Positions 50,148-64,000 of a stretch of DNA of 64,000 nucleotides are shown here, one piece after another; position 1 is the stretch's first letter, and each line of letters starts with the position of its first letter. Made by a program: the position numbers and the translations under genes. The notes under the pieces were generated by a model. That model was given only the letters and a program-made list of their open reading frames with translations, had not been told where the DNA came from and searched no databases. The DNA is from Opitutia bacterium (GTDB lineage: Bacteria; Verrucomicrobiota; Verrucomicrobiia; Opitutales; Opitutaceae). The stretch lies in assembly GCA_947478395.1 (NCBI GenBank), contig CANJVR010000009.1, positions 1-64,000 of the forward strand. The letters run 5' to 3'.

Positions 50148-51125
50148 ATGATCGAAGTTTCGCACCTCACCCGCGTTTTCCGCACGTATAAGAAGCAGCC
50201 CGGCTTTTGGGGCGGCGTGCGCGGACTCTTCAAACGCGAATTCGAGGAAACTGCCGCCGCGAAAGATATCTCCTTCACGATCGCCGAGGGCGAATTCGTG
50301 GGTTTTCTCGGGCCGAACGGCGCGGGCAAAACCACCACGCTCAAGATGCTCGCCGGGCTGATCTATCCGACCAGCGGCACCGCGCGTGTCGCCGGTTTCG
50401 ATCCAACCAAACGCGAAAACGCCTATCGCCGTCTCTTCGCGCTGGTGCTCGGCCAGAAAAATCAGCTCTGGTGGGATCTGCCGGCCATCGAGTCTTTTCA
50501 ACTGCTCCGGGCGATCTACGGAATCCCGCCCGCGAATTTCAAAGCGACGCTCCACGAACTGGTCACCCTCCTCGATGTGGAGAAAAAACTCAACGTGATG
50601 GTCCGCGAGCTTTCGCTTGGCGAACGCATGAAGATGGAACTCATCGCGGCGCTGCTCCATCGCCCGCGCGTACTTTTTCTCGACGAACCCACGATCGGTC
50701 TGGATGTGATTTCGCAAAAAAACGTCCGCCAGTTTCTCCGCGAGTACAACCGCCGGCACAAGGTGACGATCCTGCTCACGAGCCACTACATGGCCGACAT
50801 CAAGGAACTCTGCGAACGCGTGATCGTGATTCACAAGGGCTCGAAAATCTACGACGGCGCCCTCGATCGGCTCGAGGCCGGCTCCGGCAGCCGCAAAAAA
50901 ATCATCACGTTTCTCCCGGGCGACGGTTCGTTTCCCGTTGGCTGGAAATCGTGCCACGGCGAGTCGAAGCGCGATGACACGACGGGGAAATTCACCGTGC
51001 GTGTGCCAGCCGAAAATCTGGTGGCCGTGTCGCAGGAAATTCTCAGCACCGGCCCGGTCGCCGATATTACGATCGAGGATATTCCGCTCGAAGACGTGAT
51101 CGCCGAACTGTTCGCGGCCCAGTGA
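50148..51125 (+). CDS. ABC transporter ATP-binding protein (ABC-2 type exporter)
   Basis: GPNGAGKT, LSLGERM, LFLDEPT, TSH. Confidence 0.92.
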   Translation: MIEVSHLTRVFRTYKKQPGFWGGVRGLFKREFEETAAAKDISFTIAEGEFVGFLGPNGAGKTTTLKMLAGLIYPTSGTARVAGFDPTKRENAYRRLFALVLGQKNQLWWDLPAIESFQLLRAIYGIPPANFKATLHELVTLLDVEKKLNVMVRELSLGERMKMELIAALLHRPRVLFLDEPTIGLDVISQKNVRQFLREYNRRHKVTILLTSHYMADIKELCERVIVIHKGSKIYDGALDRLEAGSGSRKKIITFLPGDGSFPVGWKSCHGESKRDDTTGKFTVRVPAENLVAVSQEILSTGPVADITIEDIPLEDVIAELFAAQ

Positions 51126-51196: not shown

Positions 51197-52045
51197 TCAG
51201 ACCAAGCGGCGCCAAGTCTCGCCCACGAGATCACGCATGAGCCGTTCGCACGTGGTCGCACTGTGATCGACCGCGGCGCGTAGTTGCCCTGCGTCGAGGG
51301 TGGCCCGGACGCAAACGGCCTCGAGTTCACGCGCGCTTGCCACACGTTCGATGCGCCGTCCCTCGGGAAAACTCCGCTCGCTGCGGCGGAGTTTCAGCTC
51401 ATGCAGCAGACGAAAATTAGTCTCGGCGAGTTCGCGGTGCAGCATGCGCTGGGCGGCGCTCAATTCGCCCCGCGCAATCTTGCGTAGCGTCCACAACTGC
51501 TCGCATGCGAACGCGTGCGCCAGGCCCCGCGCCGCCTCGTCGCTCAAGCGGAGATCCGGCACCTCGGCAACGACCTTCCGGTAAAACGGATCCCACGCTT
51601 CGCTGCCGTGCAAAAATCTCCAACCCGGCCGGATCACGATCGCGAGATCCTGCAGGCCCCGGCGTACTTTGCCTTCCATCCGATGCCGGCCAAGTAAGAC
51701 CAGCCATTTCAAAAGCCGCATCATGCCCGCCGACAGGATGACAAAATCGGTTTCCACGCCCGTGAATATGGCGTTCACCTTCGGCACACCCCCGATCCGC
51801 GCCACGCGCGAAGCGTAGGCGCGAATTTCGAAGTTTTTCCCAATTTCCCGGGTCCAATCCGAGTTGGAAAATCGTCCGGCTGCGCTCGTGATGATTTGAA
51901 AATCCCAGTCCGATTCCGGATCGGCGCGCCAGATTTCGTCGGTGGCTTTTCTTTCGCGCGAACCGATCAACACGAGCGCTTTCACGGCCGGCGTGCGCTG
52001 GGCCCAGGCAGTCATGGCTTCGCCAAAATCGACCGGGATACTCAC
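51197..52045 (-). CDS. Pol-beta superfamily nucleotidyltransferase (aminoglycoside-6/lincosamide NTase-like)
   Basis: LIGSR...D..SDWD motif, third acidic strand (ETDF) and helical C-terminal domain; GTGA overlap with the upstream gene. Confidence 0.65.
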   Translation of the reverse strand: MSIPVDFGEAMTAWAQRTPAVKALVLIGSRERKATDEIWRADPESDWDFQIITSAAGRFSNSDWTREIGKNFEIRAYASRVARIGGVPKVNAIFTGVETDFVILSAGMMRLLKWLVLLGRHRMEGKVRRGLQDLAIVIRPGWRFLHGSEAWDPFYRKVVAEVPDLRLSDEAARGLAHAFACEQLWTLRKIARGELSAAQRMLHRELAETNFRLLHELKLRRSERSFPEGRRIERVASARELEAVCVRATLDAGQLRAAVDHSATTCERLMRDLVGETWRRLV

Positions 52046-53823
52046 AGGCTGCGCAGTGAAATTAAAATTTCCGTGCCGTTCATACCCGGACCGGCGTGAA
52101 TTTCGCCGTGATGCAGACGTAATACCTCCTTCGCCAAAAATACACCGATACGGCCTTGATTGGGGACCAAGCCGTCAGCCGGCTCCGGCAGGATGCCTTC
52201 GAGCTCAAGGTGCTTGCCCTTGATCGACAGCATGGCGGTCAATTCATCCCCCTTACCAGCGGACCGCACCTGCAACGTCAGCTCTCCTCCGTTCAGGGCG
52301 AATCGGTTTTCAAGGACGGTGGCGATCAGCGAGCGCAGGGAGAATTCGATCAATTCCCTAGTGACCGAAAGTGGCACCGGGTCAGGGCCGACTTCGACGC
52401 GGAACCCAAGCACGGCGCCGACCCCCTGCGCGAGTTCGCGCAGATCAACGACCGAAGGCTTGGCCTCGTAGAGCGACTGCATGAGGCGGATGTTACCGTT
52501 CAGTGCCTCAAGTTTTGCGACGTCGCCCCGCGCCGCTTCGAGCAGAGGCGGTGGAATATTGTTTCCCGCTCCGGCCTGCCGGAACGTCGTGAGCGAGACC
52601 AGCGCGTTAGCCAATTCATGATTGAGAGTAAGACCGAGTTCGCGGAGCAGGGTCCGGCGATCAGCCCGCTCACGTTGGGCCATATCTTGCCGCTCGAGAC
52701 TCGCTTCCTCCCAAAACGCCCAGACTCCACCGGTTTCGACAATCGGACCGGAGCTCGCGCGAAAGGGTTGGCCCGGCTTTGGCGTGACGCGGCAGACGCC
52801 TTGGGCAACGCGCACATCCCCAATGAGCGCGCGCACGACAAGCGGGACCTGCCGTGGTGGATTTTCGTCGGGGCCCAAAATGAGAGTCCCCGGCAGATAT
52901 TTCGCCCCGAGTGTCGCCTGCTCCGCCAGATGGTGGAGACGCGCATATTGCCCACACTTCATCAGAAAATAGCGCAAGAGCCGCGCGTAATGGACCAGAC
53001 GGGTGCGATCGAACTCGTCGTAGGGCTGGCCATCATCGCGGACGCCGAGCGCAATAAGTCCCTGCAAGCGGCCGTTCTCGTGCATGGGTGCAAGCAACCG
53101 GGCGCCCCACAGCGCGAGCCGGTTGCGAATGGCCAGTTCCGCCACGGGATCGGCCGGGCCTTCCCACGACGATCCATCGACCACGATCGGATGAGTTTCA
53201 AAGAAAACCACCAAGGGATCATCGAGCCGAAAAAATGAGGTGCCTCGATCGGCGCGGAACCCGTCGGGCTCACGCAGAAAAAAAACCGCGTGCGACGCCC
53301 GCAGTAAATGGCGCGAGGCCCGGCGAAATTCCGCGATCAGCCGGTCGCGCGTATCCATCGTTTCAACTGCGGCCTCCAGGAAATCCCAAAGCTCAGCGGC
53401 GTCCACCAAAGGCTGCACTCGCGCGGTCGGCCGCACCGGCTCAGCGCGGCGGATCCGATCCGCCATTAGCTCAAGCATCGATTGTTTTTCTGCGACTTCC
53501 TCGACCAACGGCAGTAATTCCCGCAAGCGCACGGCGCTCTCTTCGTAGGAGAGATAAATTTTGGCGCGCCCTGACAGTTTCGCCTGCTCGTATGGCAGGC
53601 TGCGGGGTTCACCGACAAAAATAGTAGCACAACGCGCAAGCGCGGGCGGCAGGTCTGCTTCCGCCGCCGCATCCAAAACCACAACGGCTGCAAACCCCGG
53701 AGAAGTGCCGCTGGACAGCGCGTGCGGAATCATCCTCAGCGCCGTTTTTCCCGGCGCGACCTGTCGTTCCCACGCATCCCCCAAAGCGGAGTCCGACGTC
53801 GCGAGAATGATTAAGGTCGGCAT
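52042..53823 (-). CDS. Pseudo-receiver-GAF-HisKA protein with degenerate HATPase (pseudokinase/phosphotransferase)
   Basis: GAF-like LLAPM.ENGRL.GLIALG.R.DG.PY; H-box LNHELANAL; no N-box NA and no DxGxG; residual GRIGVFLAK...HHGEI. Confidence 0.65.
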   Translation of the reverse strand: MPTLIILATSDSALGDAWERQVAPGKTALRMIPHALSSGTSPGFAAVVVLDAAAEADLPPALARCATIFVGEPRSLPYEQAKLSGRAKIYLSYEESAVRLRELLPLVEEVAEKQSMLELMADRIRRAEPVRPTARVQPLVDAAELWDFLEAAVETMDTRDRLIAEFRRASRHLLRASHAVFFLREPDGFRADRGTSFFRLDDPLVVFFETHPIVVDGSSWEGPADPVAELAIRNRLALWGARLLAPMHENGRLQGLIALGVRDDGQPYDEFDRTRLVHYARLLRYFLMKCGQYARLHHLAEQATLGAKYLPGTLILGPDENPPRQVPLVVRALIGDVRVAQGVCRVTPKPGQPFRASSGPIVETGGVWAFWEEASLERQDMAQRERADRRTLLRELGLTLNHELANALVSLTTFRQAGAGNNIPPPLLEAARGDVAKLEALNGNIRLMQSLYEAKPSVVDLRELAQGVGAVLGFRVEVGPDPVPLSVTRELIEFSLRSLIATVLENRFALNGGELTLQVRSAGKGDELTAMLSIKGKHLELEGILPEPADGLVPNQGRIGVFLAKEVLRLHHGEIHAGPGMNGTEILISLRSL

Positions 53824-55814
53824 GGAAAGGTGACACGAAACGTCGCGCCCTGACCAAAGATCGGCTGGTCGGCCACAATCGTAGCATTAACATTGGCCAG
53901 AATGTCCCTACATATCGCCAGTCCAAGGCCAAAACCAGACGACTTGCTCGACTGAAAAGTTTCGAAAAGCCGCGGCCAAATATCCGGCGCAATCCCGGGG
54001 CCGCTGTCCGAAATCACTAACTCAATATTGTTTCCGACGTTGCGGGAAACGATTTTAATCCAGCGGTCGCCGGGCTGCGTTTCAACGGCTTGGATCGCGT
54101 TCAAGCAGAGATTGAGCACCACCTGCTTGACCGCGGCAGGATCCGTATAGATGGCATCGGGGGCGGCCAATAAGTCGGAGCGCAATGCGACATTAAAGCC
54201 TGCTGCTTTCGCCGCAACGAGATCAAGGCTCTCGCGTAGCACCGCATGGAGCTCCATCAATTTTGGGGAGTAAACCCTGGGCGCCGCCACATCCAACAAT
54301 TGTTCCGTCAGCCGATCTATGCGTCTAACTTCATCGCTGATGACGCGGAAAAATTTATCGCGGAAAGCCTGATCCTGATAGTGCTGCGGCAACAGTTGAA
54401 CAAAGGTCTTGATCGCAACGAGTGGATTTCTGATTTCGTGCGCCAAGCTGGCGCCTAGCAGGCCCACGGTAGCAAGTTGAGCAGCGTGCTGCGCCTTGGC
54501 GGAGAGGCTGGCCCGCTCGAGCGCGTTTGCTATAATCGCGGCAAGTTCCAGGAGCTGCAGAACCTGCGGGTAGGTGAACGGGCGCCTTGACGCAGCTAAA
54601 CCGACGCCGACCAACGCATTTAGCGTCGGCCCATCACAGGCGACCAAAATACCCAAATTTTGATCAGAGAGAAATTTCGCAAGAGCGACACGGGCAGGAC
54701 TAGGCCGTTCGCGAGCCAGCCGCTCAGGTGTCGCCCAGCGGATCTCCTTCATGAGCTGCGATTCGCTGGAATCCGCGGAAATTTCAATACCACCGCCTTG
54801 ATAAAAACCTGCAGCGCCGGAAAGCACTATCGCATGCTCGCTTCGTCCCCAACCCTTCAGGATGGAGAGAAATACACCTACAAGCTCTTCCATCTGAGCC
54901 TCCTTGCCAGCGGCAGAAAAAGCTGCCCGCCGAGCATTAATCACCTGAGGATAAGCTTGAAATGCGCGGTTGAGCCAGGCGTTCAATAAACCAGCAAACC
55001 ACAGCGTGAGAGCTGTCGTCGCCAGAAATTCAAGAGGGGGAGGAAAAATTGGACCCAAGCTCACGTTCAGCACCCATGCAAAAGCACAGCTCAGCAATAC
55101 CAGAACACTCTTTTCCGCGCATACTATCACTACTTGCCGTGCATCGAAGATGCGATGGGTGTTGATACCGATTACAGTAAATGCATACAGCACCAAAACA
55201 ATGATCGGCTGGAGCTGAATGGCAATACGCGCGTTAAAAACTGCACCGACAGCCATGAGTACTAAAACAGTTACAGCTACCGCACTACCGCCCAGCAAAA
55301 GGATTTGAAGCTCCAATCTAGCAGCGCCAGCCCGCGCTCGCATTTTAACAATGGTATCACTACAAAGACCGGCATAAAGTAACACAAGCCCGCCCATATA
55401 TGCGTAGTAACCAAAGCCGTAAATTTTATCACCTGCAGTAGAATGGGCCGGAACAAACCAGCCAGTAAAGCTGACGATCGCTAACGCCAGCGAACATAAA
55501 ACCCAAATCCACCCCCTGCATACAATAACTTTAATCCCCGGTGAACACTCAATAACAGCTTCTTTCAAAAGCCAAAGATGCAACGGGATAAAAGCTCCCG
55601 CAGCGGAAGATATTCGCACCCAAATAAGACCATTACTGCCTAGAGTTGCAATATAAACACAAGTAATCCACGCACTAACATGCACAGATAATGTGAAAAA
55701 CCATCGGTTTATTGCACGACGCGGATTAGCCCAGAAAGCAGCACAGCCGACAAGGAGAACGGCCACGGCAGCCAGCACCGCGGCAAAAGAACTTATTTGC
55801 TCATGACCAGACAT
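53811..55814 (-). CDS. Membrane sensor histidine kinase A (HisKA_7TM-like + GAF-like + HisKA + HATPase)
   Basis: About 9 hydrophobic helices starting W.NPRR.INR.F; AHEIRNPL, NLCLNA, DSGPGI, GFGLGL. Confidence 0.9.
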   Translation of the reverse strand: MSGHEQISSFAAVLAAVAVLLVGCAAFWANPRRAINRWFFTLSVHVSAWITCVYIATLGSNGLIWVRISSAAGAFIPLHLWLLKEAVIECSPGIKVIVCRGWIWVLCSLALAIVSFTGWFVPAHSTAGDKIYGFGYYAYMGGLVLLYAGLCSDTIVKMRARAGAARLELQILLLGGSAVAVTVLVLMAVGAVFNARIAIQLQPIIVLVLYAFTVIGINTHRIFDARQVVIVCAEKSVLVLLSCAFAWVLNVSLGPIFPPPLEFLATTALTLWFAGLLNAWLNRAFQAYPQVINARRAAFSAAGKEAQMEELVGVFLSILKGWGRSEHAIVLSGAAGFYQGGGIEISADSSESQLMKEIRWATPERLARERPSPARVALAKFLSDQNLGILVACDGPTLNALVGVGLAASRRPFTYPQVLQLLELAAIIANALERASLSAKAQHAAQLATVGLLGASLAHEIRNPLVAIKTFVQLLPQHYQDQAFRDKFFRVISDEVRRIDRLTEQLLDVAAPRVYSPKLMELHAVLRESLDLVAAKAAGFNVALRSDLLAAPDAIYTDPAAVKQVVLNLCLNAIQAVETQPGDRWIKIVSRNVGNNIELVISDSGPGIAPDIWPRLFETFQSSKSSGFGLGLAICRDILANVNATIVADQPIFGQGATFRVTFPCRP

Positions 55815-56995
55815 GCGTTTGTTCCTGAAAGACCGTGGGCATTTACTAGAGTAATCTGAGCCTGAAGTTTCCTGAAGTTTGAGCTCAAATTAAGGGCGCA
55901 TAGTGGATCAGGAAATTTCCAATTAACCGTTGGCGGCAGCAATCCATGGCGCAATCCAAGCGCGGAGCATGCTATTTGAATCGCACCGGCAGCGCCGAGA
56001 GGATTGCCGATTGCGCCCTTGATTGAGAAAACAGGGGTTTCCTCCACTCGTTCTCCCAACAAACGTGTGATCGCGACTGCTTCGGAGGCGTCGACCAAGC
56101 GATGCCCAGGACCCCATGCATTTACGGAATCAACATCAGAGACCTTATACCCACCGTTTGCGACCGCGAAGCGCATTGCGTCCATCATCCCTTCTCCGGG
56201 CATCTCAATAGAGTCGGTCGCGAATGCGTATCCATCAATAAATGCATAACCAGGGCGCGGACTGGAATCCGGTTCTAACACTAAAACACACGCCCCCTCG
56301 CCGATTACTCCAGTAGTTCGCCACAGGTCAAATGGTCTGCATTGGCGTTCCGGCCAATCCGAATTACCGGGCGCCAACCCAGCCATCTTCATTTCCAGCA
56401 TGGGGTGAAAGTACAACGGAGACTCCGTTCCGCCACAAATGGCTATATCCGTTCGGCCCTGAGCAACCATGTCGGCGCCATGGCCGATTGCATCAAGTCC
56501 CGAGCAACATGCACTTTGATACGCCATCGTACGAGTGGTGCCGCCGACAAGCTCACTGATAGTCCCAGCAATCGAGCTAACTGACGCAGAAAAAACCGAA
56601 GTTGGAAAGCCAATCACGGGCCCTTTTTTAACTATCATCTCAACTGTTTTGTTGATAGTCCCAAAATCCATTAGTGACGCCCCAACCAAAATAACAGCAT
56701 TTGTATTTTTAAGATCTTTTAATCTAAACCCAGCGTCCTTAGCTGCGAGTATTGCCGCAGCCACGGCTAGTTGCGTATGACGAGGCATACGTTTGTCGTG
56801 AATATCGGACACATAGTCATCTAATTTGAATGACTTGATTTCTGCACCGACGAATTGGCCCGCTTCTTCATAGAAACGGGTAATCGATCCGACGCGGCTG
56901 ACAGGCTCTAAGATACCTTTCCAGAAATTTTCCCTTCCAATTCCTGCTGGGGTAACCGGCCCGATACCCGTGATCTTTACACGTCGTCGCTTCAT
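55793..56995 (-). CDS. Beta-ketoacyl synthase (FabF/KS-alpha fold) with non-canonical active site Cys-Trp-Asn
   Basis: RRVKITGIG, SACCSG (Cys kept), RPFD...GEGA; NAWGPGH replaces NAHGTST; KGAIGNPLGAAG replaces KSMTGHLLGAAG. Confidence 0.85.
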   Translation of the reverse strand: MKRRRVKITGIGPVTPAGIGRENFWKGILEPVSRVGSITRFYEEAGQFVGAEIKSFKLDDYVSDIHDKRMPRHTQLAVAAAILAAKDAGFRLKDLKNTNAVILVGASLMDFGTINKTVEMIVKKGPVIGFPTSVFSASVSSIAGTISELVGGTTRTMAYQSACCSGLDAIGHGADMVAQGRTDIAICGGTESPLYFHPMLEMKMAGLAPGNSDWPERQCRPFDLWRTTGVIGEGACVLVLEPDSSPRPGYAFIDGYAFATDSIEMPGEGMMDAMRFAVANGGYKVSDVDSVNAWGPGHRLVDASEAVAITRLLGERVEETPVFSIKGAIGNPLGAAGAIQIACSALGLRHGLLPPTVNWKFPDPLCALNLSSNFRKLQAQITLVNAHGLSGTNACLVMSK

Positions 56996-57032
56996 CTAGA
57001 GCGAGCGGGGGGTGGGCGCATAACTCACGATT

Positions 57033-58184
57033 TTAAGCGCCCGGCTCCCGGGCCACGGGGACCACGATCCGAATCGTCGTCCCTTTCCCGTGTGCGGACG
57101 TCAGCTCGAACGTTCCGCCATGCGCACCTATTAGGTGCCGGCAGATGCTCAACCCCAACCCGGTTCCACCGGGTTTGCTGCTAAAACCTCCGCGCAATGC
57201 CCGCCTTACACGATCCGCGTCCATGCCAGATCCGTTGTCCACGATCAGAACTTCAAAATTATTTTCCTGGCGGGAAAAAGTTACCGTTAGAGCTGTCGCG
57301 CCCGCTTCCAAAGCATTCTTAAACGTATTTTGGAAAATCCGCATCAGCTCGTATTTCGAGCCGCGCACAACGGCGTTGGGTAGGCCCTCGTTGCGTATGG
57401 CGGGATTCCCGAAAAACAAAACCTGCCTCACATCCTCGGCCACGCTCACCAAATCCACCGGCCCAAATTCTGCAAGTTTCCTAAAGGACGATCTCCAATT
57501 CTCCGAGAGATGATGACAGTACTCCGCCGCTTTTTCGACAATTTCCGCGTAGCCCGTGAGCTTGCTCGCGATCTCCACTTCGTGCGCCGCAATCCTCCGT
57601 GCCTCCTCGGCCAGCAACGTCGCATAGCCAATCACGACCGTCAGCGGATTGTTCAAATCGTGCACGAGTTCGACCGATGCCCGCGCCTGCCAGATCTGCG
57701 GCTCGTTCCGCTCAATTTCTGACTTTAGCGCCACGTTCATCGCTTGCGCGTCCATCGCCAATTTCTCGTGAAGACGACGCATCCGCGTGGCCTCGACCTG
57801 CTGGCGGACCGCGTCGCGTAGTTCGGCTACGTCCGGCGGCTTGCGCAGGTATTGATTGGCTCCCGCCAGCATCGCCTGCTGGGCCGTCAGCAAAGTACCG
57901 TATCCGGTCAGCATGATCACCGAGACCTGCGAATCGATCTTACGCAGTTCCTCCAATGCGCGGATCCCATCCATCTCTGGCATGCGAATATCCATCACCA
58001 CCGCGGCATAGGAACGCTGCTTCAGCTTGGCTAGCGCCTCGCTCGCCCGTTCCGCCGTATCAACCGCAAACTCCGTCGACAACGTGAACGCAATCGACTC
58101 ACGCGGACCGTATTCGTCGTCGACCACTATAACCAGAGGCCGATCTGCCGACACAGCGGGAGCGGTAGATTTTTGCATCAACAT
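57033..58184 (-). CDS. Cytoplasmic hybrid receiver-histidine kinase (REC-HisKA-HATPase)
   Basis: VVDDE, MDIRMP, LTG, RKP; VHDLNNPL, NTFKNA, DNGSGM, GTGLGL. Confidence 0.9.
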   Translation of the reverse strand: MLMQKSTAPAVSADRPLVIVVDDEYGPRESIAFTLSTEFAVDTAERASEALAKLKQRSYAAVVMDIRMPEMDGIRALEELRKIDSQVSVIMLTGYGTLLTAQQAMLAGANQYLRKPPDVAELRDAVRQQVEATRMRRLHEKLAMDAQAMNVALKSEIERNEPQIWQARASVELVHDLNNPLTVVIGYATLLAEEARRIAAHEVEIASKLTGYAEIVEKAAEYCHHLSENWRSSFRKLAEFGPVDLVSVAEDVRQVLFFGNPAIRNEGLPNAVVRGSKYELMRIFQNTFKNALEAGATALTVTFSRQENNFEVLIVDNGSGMDADRVRRALRGGFSSKPGGTGLGLSICRHLIGAHGGTFELTSAHGKGTTIRIVVPVAREPGA

Positions 58185-58326
58185 TCTAAAGAGGCGCCCA
58201 AAAGAAACACGCCGAGCGCGAGACGGAGTTGTACCATGGGTAACGCGGGTTTGCAGTCTGCGTCGCACTCTGTCAAGGAGTGCGTCCCTCCGGTCGCTAC
58301 GCTGCCACGTCTTCATCTCTCACTCC

Positions 58327-59616
58327 GTGAATCTCGCCCTCGTTGTTCTCCTCTCAGCCTCTTCATCCAGCCTGTTCATCTGGCTCGTATTGCGGACCTA
58401 CTACGCACCCCGCTTTGAACGCCTGCGAGCGGCGGAGGAGAAGAATACCGGCTTGATTACAGAGTTGTCATCGCTGCGAAGCGCGCGTGACGAAATCGCC
58501 CTTCAGCTAACACGCGCCCAGAGCTATCTCGAGACCGAGCGAAGTGCTCATGAGCGCTTGGTCAGCGAATTCAAAGCGCTTTCGGCGGACGCGCTTCGCG
58601 CCAATCGCGCCGATTTTCTCGAGCAAGCCACCCAAGCATTCGCCCATCTCCAAACCCAGTCTTTGGGCGACCTCGAAAAGCGACAGCAGTCCATCGATGC
58701 TCTCGTCAAGCCCCTGCGCGAATCCCTCGAAAAAGTTGACGGCAAAATCGCCGACATCGAGAAGGCGCGCGCCACCGCCTATGGTGCGCTCGGCGAACAA
58801 TTGAAGCATCTCGGCGCGGCTCAACTTCAACTCCAAGCGGAAGCCGGGAAACTTTCGACCGCGCTTCGCTCCACTTCGTTTGCTGGCAGTTGGGGCGAAC
58901 TCCAACTTCGCCGCGTCGTAGAGATGGCGGATATGCTTCCTTACTGTGATTTCACGGAGCAAGAAACCGCCGCGGCCGGCGGCTTCCGCGCCGATCTTGT
59001 GGTCCGACTCCCCGGCGGACAACGCATCGTGGTTGACGCCAAGGCCCCACTTGAGGCGTACCGCGCCGCGGTGGATGCGACCGACGCCGGACTTCGCGAA
59101 ACCCGGCTTGCCGAACATGCCCAGAAAGTGCGTGGCCATATCGACGCGCTCGGCGCCAAGAATTACTGGGAGCAGTTCCAACCTGCTCCGGAATTCGTCG
59201 TTCTCTTCTTACCCGGCGATCACTTTCTCACGGCCGCGCTCTCCGCCGATTCGACATTGATGGACCGAGCCCTCAGCCGCCGCGTCTTACTCGCAACACC
59301 CACCACTTTAATCGCCCTCCTTAAAGCAGCTCACTATGGTTGGCGCCAGGAAGCGGTCTCAAAGAATGCCGACGAAATCAGCGCCCTGGGCCGGCAGCTG
59401 TATGATCGCGTGGTAGGATTCGCGGAAAACCTCGAAAAAGTCGGGCGCGGCCTCGACGGCGCGGTTAAAGGTTTCAATCAAGCCGTCGGCTCTTTCGAAG
59501 GCACCCTACTACCCGGCGCTCGGAAATTTGCTGAACTCGGAGCAAAGGGCACAAAAGACCTTATGACACCAAGCGGACTCGAAATCACGCCGAGAGAAAT
59601 CAATAAACGCAGCTAA
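58327..59616 (+). CDS. rmuC: DNA recombination protein RmuC
   Basis: N-terminal TM and coiled coil; GSWGELQL, D.VVRLPG...IVVDAK.P, PEFVVLFLP, TPTTLIALL. Confidence 0.92.
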   Translation: MNLALVVLLSASSSSLFIWLVLRTYYAPRFERLRAAEEKNTGLITELSSLRSARDEIALQLTRAQSYLETERSAHERLVSEFKALSADALRANRADFLEQATQAFAHLQTQSLGDLEKRQQSIDALVKPLRESLEKVDGKIADIEKARATAYGALGEQLKHLGAAQLQLQAEAGKLSTALRSTSFAGSWGELQLRRVVEMADMLPYCDFTEQETAAAGGFRADLVVRLPGGQRIVVDAKAPLEAYRAAVDATDAGLRETRLAEHAQKVRGHIDALGAKNYWEQFQPAPEFVVLFLPGDHFLTAALSADSTLMDRALSRRVLLATPTTLIALLKAAHYGWRQEAVSKNADEISALGRQLYDRVVGFAENLEKVGRGLDGAVKGFNQAVGSFEGTLLPGARKFAELGAKGTKDLMTPSGLEITPREINKRS

Positions 59617-59756
59617 CCCATCAACTGCTCCGTCCTTTTTTTACCTGCGTTTCTCTGCGTTCACCAAACCACGAAACATTTCGAACAGGATTTCGCGCAA
59701 CGCAGGCCGCGAAAACCGCCGCTACAAACTCTTTAGAAATCGCGCCCGATCGAATG

Positions 59757-59872
59757 CATTAACCATATTTCCATTTCCAATAAATTAAATAATTTCTAAA
59801 AACAAAACCCCACATATGCCAATACTATATTAAAAAATAAAATATAGATATATTTACAATAATAAATACCAA
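59757..59872. promoter_or_regulatory. Extremely AT-rich intergenic region upstream of sensor kinase B
   Basis: 59821-59870 has only 5 G/C in 50 nt; contains TATATT and TTTACA elements. Confidence 0.55.
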
Positions 59873-59952
59873 CTCCGCGTTCATTGCGAAGAGCGCCTAT
59901 TAAGGGCCGATCACGCCGCCAGCTCCAACGCACCAAGCAAAAGCACAAATCT

Positions 59953-62052
59953 ATGCCCATAATAATTATAGCCATCGCAATTTTCACCATAGCCCTGGGT
60001 GCTGTTGTCGCATGGGCAAACCCAGAGCGCTTGCTTAATCGCGCATTCTGTACCGCAGCCATCATCCAGGCCATCTGGCTCGGATGCGTCTATGCAATGA
60101 TTCTAGCAGGCTCTCGAGGCAATTTAGACGAGGTCGCTTTTTGGTTGAGGCTAAATGCAGCATTCTCCGCATTTTTTCCTCTTACACTTTGGTTAACCAA
60201 GGAACTTGTCTCAGTACCCAAGGACCACAAACGCCTGTTAATGAATTGTATCCCATGGATTCTCGCTGGCGTTCTATTAGCGTCGCTTGCGTACACACCT
60301 TCATTTGTTTTTCGAGGAACGAACCCTCAACGCTATGAGCGTGGACCTGGCTACTATTTATACGAGCTACTGGCGCTAACCATCTATTGCATTCTAGTAA
60401 CAGAAACGTTTCGAAAGATGCGAAGCCTAAGCGGCATGCGACGCATTGAAACTCAATTTCTCGCGATGAACCTAGTAATCGCCGGACTCATCGGAACACT
60501 TTTAACCGCAGTAGGCACTTATCTCGATAGCTCGGCATTAAAGAGACTGAGCATTGCCGCATTTTTCTGCGCTTACGCGGCCTCGGCTTGGGCCATAAGC
60601 ACACATCGCATATTCGAATTCCGTCAAGTTTTCACGTCGATTTCGCAACGGATTAGCGTCATAATTATATCTGGTGTTGGTGTAGCCAGCGCAACTTGGT
60701 TTCTCGATATTTTCCTACCCCAATATATCGCTCTTTTCATCAGTACATTATTTTTCGGAGCTTTAGCTTTTTTATTGGATCGCAAGTCGCGCGAGTGGCT
60801 CGACCTAAATAGGATGCGTCACCTTGCGAGATTTCGGCAGACTTTTATCGAGGTCGCGAAGCGCGAAGCGAGTCCGGACGAATTATGTCTGCGATTCTCA
60901 ACGTTATTGAGCGCCGAACATGGAACACTCCATGCCATGCTGCTGATCGATAAAGGTGTGGGAGTCCCTGAGTCGGCGCTAGAGATCTCCAAAAGCCGTC
61001 TTGGCTATTCCGCGCTCTGCCAGATGGGCTGGGCCACTCCTGAAAGTCTTGAGCGGCGACGGCCCGATCCAGCTTTGGCTGACTTGCAAGATTTCCTCTC
61101 TGAAAACAATCTCGGCGTGATTGTTACCAGTCCCCATGGCAGTGAAAGCCCCGCCTTGGTCGTTGCGTTAGGCAGGAAACCCAACGATTGGCCTTTCACT
61201 TACCCCGAGGTCCAGCGGCTTCAGAATATTGCCGAGCTGATGGATAGCATCCTCGCCCGCTCTCGCCTCGCCATGCAGGCCGCCATGCAGGTAAAACTGG
61301 AGCACATGGCGATGATGTCACGCGGCCTGGCCCACGATCTGAGCAATCTCATTACACCCATCTCGTCGTTTCTGATTTGCACCGATGGTAGATTCCCAGT
61401 CGGCACCACTGAAGCAGAGGTTCATTTCGCCGCGCGGCGCTCGATTCGGGTGATGGGCGAGTATGTCCGGGAGGCACTATTTTTTTCAGAGCGACTTTCT
61501 CCAAACTTCGAGCGCGTCGATCCTGGCGCGCTGTTTCGCGCGGTCCAAGACCTCACCACCGCCCAGGCCACCGAGCAAGGTGTCGTAATTTCGATCTCAT
61601 CCGATTATCATGACACGTTCCAAGGCGACACGATCCTCCTCCACCGCACGCTCGTCAATTTGGTGAATAATGCCCTCGACGCCTCAAAGACCGGTCAAGT
61701 TATTGAATTGTCCGCAACCGCTGGGCCCCTCGGCCGGGTCCTTATCAAAGTGAGCGATTGCGGCTCCGGCGTGCCGCCGGAAAACATTGCGCGGATTTTC
61801 GATCCTTATTTTACGACGAAACAGTTTGGCGCCGAAGTGCGCGGTTTTGGCCTGGGGCTGACTATCTGCCAAAAAATCGTGCATCTGCATCACGGGACCA
61901 TTTCGGTAAGTAGCAGGCCGAACCGAGGCACGACGTTCACCATCGACCTGCCCATTTCACCAGCCCCCAACGGTACTCGGATGACGCAAACCCGCGTTGC
62001 CCCCCAGCCGCGCGAGATCGCGATCGCAAGGCCTCAGCCCATCCTAACATGA
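59953..62052 (+). CDS. Membrane sensor histidine kinase B (paralogue of kinase A)
   Basis: WANP.R..NR.F plus multiple TM helices; WATPESL.RRRP and PFTYPEV shared with kinase A; AHDLSNL, NLVNNA, DCGSGV, GFGLGL. Confidence 0.9.
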   Translation: MPIIIIAIAIFTIALGAVVAWANPERLLNRAFCTAAIIQAIWLGCVYAMILAGSRGNLDEVAFWLRLNAAFSAFFPLTLWLTKELVSVPKDHKRLLMNCIPWILAGVLLASLAYTPSFVFRGTNPQRYERGPGYYLYELLALTIYCILVTETFRKMRSLSGMRRIETQFLAMNLVIAGLIGTLLTAVGTYLDSSALKRLSIAAFFCAYAASAWAISTHRIFEFRQVFTSISQRISVIIISGVGVASATWFLDIFLPQYIALFISTLFFGALAFLLDRKSREWLDLNRMRHLARFRQTFIEVAKREASPDELCLRFSTLLSAEHGTLHAMLLIDKGVGVPESALEISKSRLGYSALCQMGWATPESLERRRPDPALADLQDFLSENNLGVIVTSPHGSESPALVVALGRKPNDWPFTYPEVQRLQNIAELMDSILARSRLAMQAAMQVKLEHMAMMSRGLAHDLSNLITPISSFLICTDGRFPVGTTEAEVHFAARRSIRVMGEYVREALFFSERLSPNFERVDPGALFRAVQDLTTAQATEQGVVISISSDYHDTFQGDTILLHRTLVNLVNNALDASKTGQVIELSATAGPLGRVLIKVSDCGSGVPPENIARIFDPYFTTKQFGAEVRGFGLGLTICQKIVHLHHGTISVSSRPNRGTTFTIDLPISPAPNGTRMTQTRVAPQPREIAIARPQPILT

Positions 62053-63269
62053 GCCGGCGGATCGATCACCTCTTTACCCCTCGTATCCTTGTGGTGGATG
62101 ACGAGCAACAAATCCACGCCTCACTACGGCTACGATTGGCCAAGGACCACGAGATCGTTTCCTGTCTTGATCCCGCCGCCGCCCTTAGCGTGGTCGCCGA
62201 ATCCCAGTTCGATCTGTGCCTCGTCGACATCCATATGCCCGGAATGGATGGACTCACCTTCATCGAGGCCGCCCAAAAAAGCGATCCAGCGCTCGGCTTT
62301 GTGGTCCTCAGCGCGTTCGATTCAGCTGAAAATCTCCGCCGTACCATCCCGCTTCAGGTTTTTGAATTCGTGACGAAACCGTTCCCGGAACGACATGAAT
62401 TCGAGGCGCGCATCCCGGGCTGGGTCGACCGGACCCGCAAACAAAGGCAGGAGCAAAAACTCGCCCTAGACGCCGCCATCCTCAACCGCGAGCTCGAGTT
62501 CGCTCGTCAGGAACGCGAAATCGAGCTGGTTGCCTCGGAAACAGCCCGGGATGCGTTGCTCCAAACGACCAACCTGCTCACCACCGTCAACGCCCACCTC
62601 GACACAGCGGTGGCTCTCGTTGCCACAAAAGCCAAGGCTGACCTAGGTTCCGCCCCGCTGCTGCGGAATTTGGACGTGGCCCGAAAAACCGCCGACGCCG
62701 CGGTCACGGTGGCCGAAAAATTCTTCGGCTCTGCCTACGCCAACCGCGACTCTGCGCCAGCCTTCATCGATTCAGGCCTTCAGCATGCCATCCAGATTGC
62801 GCTGCGCATGAATATCGCCGGGATCGAAAGCAAAGCCGTGGATTTCTCCCCGGCCGATGGACGTTCGTTGGTGCGTGGGCTATCCGGCATCGATTTTCTC
62901 CTCATGATGATCCCGCTCGTTAGCCTCGCATTGATGGTGACCGAGCCGAACACCACCGTCGGCCTGCGGGCGGAAACGATCGGGCGACTCGACGTTGTTT
63001 CAAAAGACTCCCGGTTTCGGAACTATCTTTGGATCAACCGTCGCAACGCGCTCAGCAGCCAGCCGGGTGTCATGATTTCGCTGGCCGCAACCGCGCCGGC
63101 ATTCGCCCGTGCGGCGGCGGTAAGTTGGCTGAACGGGGACGATGGCCCGCTCGCCTCCAATACGCCGCGCGGGCTAGTTGCCGGCCTCCAAAAAAGCCGC
63201 GGCCTCCTAGGTCTGAGCATATCACCTCTTTGCGATCAGTTTCGAGTCTGTCTCGCTCTTCCCGGATAA
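62049..63269 (+). CDS. Response regulator: intact REC + coiled coil + degenerate kinase-like output domain
   Basis: VVDDE, VDIHMP, LSA, TKP; C-terminus has no recognisable H-, N- or G-boxes; ATGA overlap with kinase B. Confidence 0.8.
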   Translation: MSRRIDHLFTPRILVVDDEQQIHASLRLRLAKDHEIVSCLDPAAALSVVAESQFDLCLVDIHMPGMDGLTFIEAAQKSDPALGFVVLSAFDSAENLRRTIPLQVFEFVTKPFPERHEFEARIPGWVDRTRKQRQEQKLALDAAILNRELEFARQEREIELVASETARDALLQTTNLLTTVNAHLDTAVALVATKAKADLGSAPLLRNLDVARKTADAAVTVAEKFFGSAYANRDSAPAFIDSGLQHAIQIALRMNIAGIESKAVDFSPADGRSLVRGLSGIDFLLMMIPLVSLALMVTEPNTTVGLRAETIGRLDVVSKDSRFRNYLWINRRNALSSQPGVMISLAATAPAFARAAAVSWLNGDDGPLASNTPRGLVAGLQKSRGLLGLSISPLCDQFRVCLALPG

Positions 63270-63296
63270 GCCGAAGCGAAACCCTCACTGATCATC

Positions 63297-64000
63297 GTGC
63301 TCACGATCATCTCCAGTGTCGCACGGGAACGCGCTGCCTTCGCCGCGTTAAGCGACGCCCGCCGATGGGGCTACTCGGAGTGCGACAGCATCCGCGCATT
63401 CAAGAGGCTGCTGCAACACACCCGACCTGGAATTGTCTTAGTCCGACAGAAACTGAGCGATGGGTACTCGGATGACGTGATCGCGCTCTTGAAGGACAAC
63501 GGGGCTTCCGCCACGAAAATCGTGGTCCTACTTCCCGCCGGTTCACCGTCGGCGCTGGAGGCCCGCCAAATCGCGCTGGGCGCACATTGCGTGCAACGTG
63601 ATCCCGTTCGCACTGACGTGCTGGTCGAATATCTCAACCAATACCGCGTCCATTCGAAACACACCGCGAAAGCCTCTCCGGCGGCAGCGCCCACGTTCCC
63701 ATTCGCCGGCGCCACCATTCATTTCGTCGATCGAAAAATTGAATCAAAAGGAAAATCGGCGAGCCTGACCCCGCGCGAGCTCCAGCTCGCCGGGCTGCTT
63801 GGCGAATCCGCGGGGGCCGTGCTTTCATACGAAACTTTGTATAGCGAAATTCTCAGCCAGAAATTTCGGGGCGACACCAGCAACCTACGCGTGCTGCTCG
63901 GCAAGCTCGATGTTTCCGCGCGCCGCGCCGGCATCGCGCTCCGCAGCTGGGTCGAGGTGATTCCAAAACTGGGCTATCGGTATCGCGCCCCTTCATCCGA
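63297..64000 (+). CDS. OmpR/PhoB-type winged-helix regulator with pseudo-receiver, 3' end outside window (not in ORF track)
   Basis: Manual translation: MLTIISSVARER...PGIVLVRQKLSDG...GAHCVQRDP...LTPRELQLAGLL...VLSYETLY...TSNLRVLLGKL...EVIPKLGYRY; no stop before 64000. Confidence 0.8.
   Translation, partial: MLTIISSVARERAAFAALSDARRWGYSECDSIRAFKRLLQHTRPGIVLVRQKLSDGYSDDVIALLKDNGASATKIVVLLPAGSPSALEARQIALGAHCVQRDPVRTDVLVEYLNQYRVHSKHTAKASPAAAPTFPFAGATIHFVDRKIESKGKSASLTPRELQLAGLLGESAGAVLSYETLYSEILSQKFRGDTSNLRVLLGKLDVSARRAGIALRSWVEVIPKLGYRYRAPSS

Follow-up and report, generated by a model that had tools for sequence, protein, structure and literature searches.

Several bacterial signalling systems place the gene of an acyl-using enzyme beside that of a multi-helix membrane kinase with a phosphorelay, as in CqsA/CqsS, LqsA/LqsS and RpfF/RpfC, whose synthases are pyridoxal phosphate enzymes or a crotonase. 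We know of no ketosynthase among CqsA, LqsA and RpfF, and of no nucleotidyltransferase or degenerate kinase in those systems. PpyS, also a ketosynthase, joins or transfers acyl chains with no decarboxylation step, and its product serves as a cell-cell signal; as described in PMC4578411, the enzyme keeps a Cys-His-Asn site with a Glu base, is modelled on OleA and has a LuxR receptor (PluR). Here we describe KS*, a FabF-derived ketosynthase-like protein encoded in a window of 64,000 nucleotides (positions 1 to 64,000 of contig CANJVR010000009.1, assembly GCA_947478395.1) from an Opitutia bacterium of the family Opitutaceae. KS* differs from PpyS in its FabF descent, in lacking the His of that site and in its pairing with a membrane kinase. 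By analogy, it would work most like PpyS coupled to a receptor such as CqsS or RpfC, and the KS* module resembles CqsA/CqsS-type pairs in the conserved adjacency of enzyme and kinase (79/80 loci of the family and 19/20 loci elsewhere). A literature search, which did not extend to subscription journals, found no paper on the KS*/kinase module, which is real, conserved and apparently undescribed.

The KS* gene (55793..56995, minus strand) is an intact open reading frame (ORF) of 400 amino acids, annotated in the source databases as 3-oxoacyl-ACP (acyl carrier protein) synthase II. Only Pfam domains of elongating ketosynthases (PF00109 and PF02801) pass, and the predicted model (pLDDT 89.7) matches FabF 4LS8 with a TM-score of 0.95, a root-mean-square deviation of 2.0 and a Z of 59. 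Its score for TIGR03150 (FabF) was 249.3 bits, which does not reach the cut-off of 493.75. According to PMC9006962, elongating ketosynthases have a Cys-His-His site, in which the Cys and the oxyanion hole serve transacylation and the two His decarboxylative condensation. Residue correspondences were taken from the alignment to B. subtilis FabF. QSACCSG of KS* aligns with TACATG and retains the catalytic Cys163 (codon 56507-56509), and NAWGPGH aligns with NAHGTST, which puts Trp294 (codon 56114-56116) at the first His and His298 on the second Thr, not on a FabF His. SIKGAIGNPLG aligns with STKSMTGHLLG, with Lys326 retained and Asn331 (codon 56003-56005) at the second His. In the last loop NAHGLSG aligns with NSLGFGG, adding His387 (codon 55835-55837) and placing Leu389 at the gate Phe. 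The pantetheine-binding Thr305 and Thr307 of FabF, whose roles, like that of Phe400, are described in PMC9006962, are replaced by Pro296 and His298. Asp261 and Asn393, equivalent to the FabF gating residues Asp265 and Asn404 (PMC7138838), are kept. Compared with FabF/KAS II (TIGR03150; B. subtilis 4LS5/4LS8 and E. coli FabF), KS* is thus alike in fold and in these retained residues at about 30% identity, and differs in both His, both Thr and the GFGG Phe, in the added His, in the apparent loss of half of the ACP-contact charges and in lying in a kinase operon instead of a fab cluster. Since the Cys is kept and both His are lost, chain extension is predicted to be lost and acyl loading would be possible; KS* is predicted to be non-elongating. 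The original prediction, made from the window's letters alone, had described a full-length ORF with the catalytic Cys (SACCSG, with an extra adjacent Cys) and Lys kept, both His replaced and an NSFGFGG-type C-terminal motif reading NAHGLSG, and had concluded that this was not a normal elongase, offering as alternatives a non-decarboxylative condensing or acyl-transfer enzyme and an acyl-capturing sensor subunit. The alignment agrees with that description, and the replacement of both Thr and the gate Phe strengthens the conclusion.

Judged from sequence comparison, KS* is a conserved subfamily and not a product of strain decay. The best 120 of 1759 homologue matches are 60-100% identical to KS* and about 400 amino acids long, and their named sources are Opitutaceae or Verrucomicrobia; they carry Cys163 and His387 in 120/120, His298 in 119/120 and Trp294 in 117/120. 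KS* was found once per genome in 109 of the family's 301 genomes, spread over 26 of 63 genera. We retrieved 80 of these 109 loci, picked for long contigs, and the counts over 81 rows refer to these 80 orthologues and the query. Cys163, His298 and Asp302 are present in 81/81, Trp294 in 80/81, Cys164 in 78/81 and His387 in 79/81, the exceptions being one Arg and one truncated row. (A 38-row alignment, A5, in which His387 was also invariant, was set aside because its rows had been picked by that motif.) No His stands at either FabF His site in any readable row (81/81 or 80/80). Position 331 is Asn in 58 rows, Thr in 14, Ser in 7, Ala in 1 and missing in 1. The triad first proposed, Cys-Trp-Asn, therefore holds for the near-fixed Cys163 and Trp294 and fails for a fixed Asn, and the site is better described as Cys with both His lost. 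The gate pair is retained (Asp261 78/81, Asn393 80/81), Pro (80/81) and His (81/81) occupy the positions of Thr305 and Thr307, and the gate Phe has become Leu, Val or Ile. The catalytic loops are nearly invariant and residues 111-159, which going by the FabF structure we take to be the acyl pocket and dimer face, are highly variable.

The ratio of nonsynonymous to synonymous substitution rates (dN/dS) of KS* had a median of 0.14 over 26 close pairs (range 0.04-0.44), similar to the kinases (0.10-0.13). This check had been suggested together with the original prediction, and it points to purifying selection; strain-specific decay was rejected on this value and on the conservation across genomes. 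Four more ketosynthases are encoded in the genome of the window; each keeps both His, and one lies in a fab cluster beside an ACP gene on another contig. Two further assignments were rejected. A chain-length factor (KS-beta) disagrees with Cys163 in 81/81 rows and with the lack of a partner, no second ketosynthase being matched in the 80 family loci. The FabH-like synthases (PpyS, OleA, DarB; Cys-His-Asn) disagree with the exclusively elongating Pfam domains, the absent His and the variable Asn.

KS* lies in a minus-strand run of overlapping genes in the order receiver-kinase, KS*, HK1, pHK and nucleotidyltransferase. The receiver-kinase (57033..58184, minus strand), the first gene of the operon, is a cytoplasmic hybrid of receiver, HisKA and HATPase (Pfam Response_reg, HisKA, HATPase_c); going by homologue lengths it likely starts at the ATG at 58184 (383 amino acids), and its acceptor Asp and His are invariant (80/80). 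HK1 (53811..55814, minus strand), whose start overlaps the KS* stop by 22 nt, is a membrane sensor kinase with an N-terminal domain like HisKA_7TM and two more helices, followed by GAF-like, HisKA and HATPase domains. Among 65 members Pfam found HisKA and HATPase in 65/65 and HisKA_7TM in 4/65, the helices being assigned by hydropathy; His459 is invariant. The gene pHK (52042..53823, minus strand) overlaps HK1 by 13 nt and encodes a degenerate kinase with a receiver-like N-terminus (by position, with no Pfam match), GAF (33/48 members), HisKA (15/48) and a C-terminal domain for which Pfam gave no HATPase match in the 48 members; His402 is kept in 79/81. The last gene (51197..52045, minus strand) overlaps pHK by 4 nt and encodes a Pol-beta-type nucleotidyltransferase of the streptomycin adenylyltransferase (AadK) kind (Adenyl_transf in 31/57 and Polbeta in 26/57 members), with the GS, DxD and third Asp intact (G28, D46, D48 and D100 invariant). 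A seven-transmembrane (7TM) kinase lies directly downstream of KS* in 79 of the 80 family loci, and pHK, the receiver-kinase and the nucleotidyltransferase are found in 80, 79 and 77 of them. A promoter and terminator scan of the locus gave no clear excess, with counts of 6 and 24 versus shuffled expectations of 5.8 and 18.4.

Searching representatives at 50% identity with a profile brought up many stand-alone proteins in which Asn replaces the second His and the last loop contains HG; the best 150 proteins held 25 Cys-His-Asn-His and 7 Cys-Trp-Asn-His domains. The threshold of the search across the phylum also catches ordinary FabF (382/401 genomes), and only top scorers were used: from about 40 high scorers, motifs were read in 30 short loci and gene context in 20 long ones. 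A tree of 141 sequences places 15 family members and the 30 phylum matches in one clade (support 0.91) with no Cys-His-His-Phe sequence inside. At the first site the 30 matches have His (24), Asn (4) or Tyr (2) and at the second Asn (24), His (4) or Cys (2), and none has both His. His387 is retained in 28/30 and His298 is often Asp. His387 is diagnostic because it is kept where the other sites vary, and it is a better candidate for a new catalytic residue than His298 or Asn331, since Asn331 is variable and the wider class does not retain His298. The suggestion of relocated His residues thus survives for His387 and not for His298. In a subgroup (L168, L178, L181 and L184) the first site is Asn and the second is His, which is the thiolase arrangement, and His387 is kept. 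One family (L188:4998-7430 and L191:11951-13927) has a ketosynthase with Tyr, Asn and Arg at the three sites and no FadL, and a lantibiotic-dehydratase-like gene adjoins its receiver-kinase.

Thiolases carry out non-decarboxylative acyl-Cys chemistry of the kind proposed for KS*, and KS* has a GxP motif in its third loop. The thiolase acid/base Cys413 is placed two residues before Gly415 in PMC6790690, and by counting, His387, two residues before the oxyanion-hole residue, would fall in the register of that Cys (PMC6790690, PMC9006962). A profile alignment (hhalign) of KS* to thiolase stops before or misaligns the last loop and leaves this match unconfirmed. Membership of the thiolases was rejected: the TIGR01930 score is 24.3 bits versus 240.55, no NEAF, GHP or CxG motif was found, and the structural match to thiolases has a Z of 25-30 versus 59 to ketosynthases.

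In other Verrucomicrobiota families we grouped the genes of the 20 long loci by BLAST clustering and checked one or two members of each group in Pfam. A 7TM kinase follows the ketosynthase in 19/20, the remaining locus being a contig end. The link between ketosynthase and kinase raised in the original prediction is real and stronger than could be seen from the window. A receiver-kinase is near in 19 loci, a FadL-family gene in 17, a sigma-54 regulator in 10 and an FAD oxidase in 8; methyltransferases, radical SAM enzymes and an N-acyl amino acid synthase-like gene occur in 2-3 each. The nucleotidyltransferase profile had no match in these 20 loci. FadL is described as mediating the uptake of long-chain acyl-homoserine lactone signals in Sinorhizobium (PMC9938287). 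At L189, L204 and L205 the clusters also encode a fusion of a FeeM-like GNAT with a class V aminotransferase-like domain, as well as an FAD oxidase and a glycerol-3-phosphate acyltransferase, and these genes are good leads to the product.

KS* seems to vary together with the membrane part of its kinase. For 74 of the 81 rows with all parts complete, and with pHK and receiver-kinase distances regressed out, the partial correlation (r) with KS* distance was 0.52 for the 7TM domain, 0.11 for GAF, 0.14 for the kinase core, 0.04-0.23 for the parts of pHK and 0.14 for the nucleotidyltransferase. In the 53 loci with canonical gene order it was 0.60 for HK1 residues 1-115, 0.22 for residues 116-228 and 0.03-0.09 for the core, and r was 0.00 between KS* and the adjoining end of the upstream gene. 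Within KS*, the correlation is higher for the middle third (0.61) than for the third nearest HK1 (0.44), and the signal sits in transmembrane helices 1-3 and 6 and is weak in the loops. Supported splits of the KS* trees disagree with the core tree in 70% of cases, and the core parts agree with each other. In one pair from the same genus KS* is 52% identical with a proportion of synonymous differences (pS) of 0.83, which is saturated, versus 78% and 0.56 for pHK, as for a swapped KS* allele. On these comparisons KS* and the start of the sensor look like a swappable cassette.

We also followed the presence and loss of the module genes. Among the 301 genomes, 105 have KS*, pHK and nucleotidyltransferase, 165 have none, 16 have pHK alone, 8 have pHK and nucleotidyltransferase without KS*, and 7 show other combinations. 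Seven of the 8 are contig ends and one, G246, has a broken module; four genomes with KS* and no nucleotidyltransferase match are fragmented, and the two inspected are contig ends. In the 16 genomes with pHK alone, KS* is cleanly deleted with the three kinases adjacent in 12 and dead in 2, one module is frameshifted and one locus is a contig end. All 14 inspected loci with a deleted or dead KS* lack the nucleotidyltransferase as well. In 13 of these 14 loci the conserved residues of the sensor domain are kept at 0.38-0.62 versus a mean of 0.88, and the kinase core is not decayed. G081 has an intact KS* (68% identical) and no HK1 at the locus; its sole 7TM kinase of the HK1 kind lies elsewhere with the nucleotidyltransferase. 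That second place (L148:8689-12842) holds the nucleotidyltransferase and the 7TM kinase far from KS*, followed by a sulfotransferase-family gene. In G173 (L141:7962-11769) all five module genes are frameshifted or truncated together.

The reading we prefer, and regard as evenly balanced between right and wrong, is that KS* carries acyl groups on its cysteine without elongating them and makes a lipid signal for the kinase encoded beside it. An acyl thioester would load Cys163; Trp294 and the lost His would, from established chemistry, bar the decarboxylation of malonyl-ACP; and with His387 as the probable acid/base the acyl group would pass to a second acyl thioester, a hydroxyl or an amine. 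The product would be a small, membrane-soluble lipid signal that, once released, may bind the membrane helices of the downstream HK1, as suggested by the linkage, FadL and the co-variation. Phosphate could then pass among HK1, His402 of pHK and the receiver-kinase, whose phosphorelay residues are conserved. The nucleotidyltransferase, with its active-site residues in place, may adenylylate the signal or a precursor and so tailor or inactivate it, and in other families this role may fall to a methyltransferase, an FAD oxidase or a radical SAM enzyme. Where present, FadL would carry the signal across the outer membrane, and the KS* pocket and sensor helices would vary together as a specificity cassette. 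More tentative is the fuller proposal that KS* represents a new class of signal synthase, in which two His were swapped for one in the thiolase acid/base position, with strain-specific lipid signals, a co-varying seven-helix kinase and adenylylation as the off-switch; we would sooner expect this to be revised than to stand as a whole.

Several observations weigh against a synthase. FadL was not found in the genome of the window, and no gene for an ACP, an acyl-CoA ligase or a second substrate is a fixed part of the module in the 80 family and 20 other loci. At six basic ACP-contact positions of FabF, carried over through the alignments to B. subtilis FabF and the FabF of the same genome with E. 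coli numbering, K or R stands in 9, 68, 58, 43, 0 and 10 of 81 KS* rows, so that only two or three seem to be kept. The co-variation leans on a few two-state columns, such as position 39; its permutation p of 0.001 is overstated, as sequence pairs are not independent; it declines with distance from the KS* stop, so that some of it can be due to shared recombination tracts; and about half of the supported splits disagree between the KS* and 7TM trees. The co-loss of KS* and nucleotidyltransferase amounts to about two events, because 13 of the 14 loci without a working KS* form one clade, and in G246, whose module is broken and lacks KS*, the nucleotidyltransferase remains. The decay of the sensor once KS* is gone is hard to square with a kinase that eavesdrops on the signal of others. 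In G056 and G101 a Cys-less KS*, a ketosynthase pseudoenzyme, stands before a 7TM kinase (L130:7147-8298 and L131:11222-12373); it has lost the Cys loop, Trp294, His298 and His387, yet its ORF is intact. The two copies have 55% identity, dN 0.41, dS 1.9 and dN/dS of about 0.2, and since a dead copy is under selection, KS* has a role there without catalysis.

Such a role is what one would expect if KS* were an input subunit of the kinase, binding or being acylated by a cytoplasmic acyl thioester or lipid and controlling HK1 by contact, with nothing released. The dead copy under purifying selection speaks for this, as do the overlapping reading frames of KS* and HK1 in almost every locus, the decay of the sensor domain once KS* is lost, and the top co-varying HK1 columns 26, 35 and 39, which flank the first cytoplasmic loop; the loss of both His with Trp in the malonyl pocket would also fit a dead-end acyl-Cys. 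A contact partner is harder to reconcile with G081, which retains KS* without HK1 at the locus, with the 12 genomes that keep three adjacent kinases after clean deletion of KS*, and with the weak co-variation of the cytoplasmic loops and GAF with KS* (r up to 0.2), and FadL and the tailoring enzymes of the wider clusters suggest that a small molecule passes through the envelope. We consider a pure subunit conceivable but rather improbable. RpfF is a signal synthase that also binds its own sensor kinase, and by that analogy a hybrid of synthase and subunit is possible.

The same FadL and tailoring genes could be turned around: FadL and the 7TM kinase may let the module sense an outside lipid-like compound, such as a foreign signal or antibiotic, which KS* together with the nucleotidyltransferase, methyltransferase or oxidase would degrade or trap by retro-Claisen cleavage, hydrolysis or adenylylation. 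FadL is an importer, the nucleotidyltransferase resembles antibiotic adenylyltransferases, the O-methyltransferases and FAD oxidases of the wider loci can inactivate hydroxylated compounds, a Cys and one base are enough for cleavage, and co-variation of enzyme and sensor would be expected here too. We nevertheless think it unlikely: the radical SAM, N-acyl amino acid synthase-like and acyltransferase genes of some loci are biosynthetic, and one translationally coupled message would suit a constitutive pair better than an induced detoxifier. Least probable by far, and hardly credible to us, is that KS* elongates like any additional FabF despite its rearranged site, or is a FabF paralogue in decay, with the kinase as a bystander. 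The FabF fold at that TM-score, the database annotation and Lys326 agree with it, but against it stand the replacement of both His, both pantetheine Thr and the gate Phe, the 0/30 wider-class matches with both His, purifying selection, a canonical FabF and ACP together on another contig, and a kinase linkage that spans many families.

Further genes surround the operon. A possibly linked accessory unit of a second 7TM kinase and two response regulators (59884..63998, plus strand) runs off the window; this kinase is 29% identical to HK1 and sits behind an AT-rich intergenic stretch. The unit adjoins the module in only 5/80 loci and so is not core. The GC content over KS*, HK1 and the second kinase (window 54001-62000) is 0.52-0.56 versus about 0.62 in the rest of the window, which may mark an acquired or swapped cassette. 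An RmuC-family gene (58027-59616) and an ABC ATPase (50148-51125) flank the operon, and since the ATPase matches in 66/80 loci, the flanking genes mark the chromosomal site.

The diagnosis of His387, the counts of FadL linkage, the cassette-like co-variation, the pattern of losses and the dead copy under selection are new here. They describe a widespread class of ketosynthases that databases label FabF and that is predicted to be incapable of FabF chemistry, so that an as yet unknown reaction of the thiolase fold is predicted. They also name one enzyme and one receptor through which a likely lipid signal of Verrucomicrobiota can be studied, and cultured carriers, Opitutus sp. GAS368 and Pontiella desulfatans, open the product and the ligand of a HisKA_7TM-type sensor to direct search. 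If the fuller proposal of a new class of signal synthase is true, it would mean cell-cell signalling with exchangeable dialects in a phylum in which our literature search found none tied to such an enzyme.

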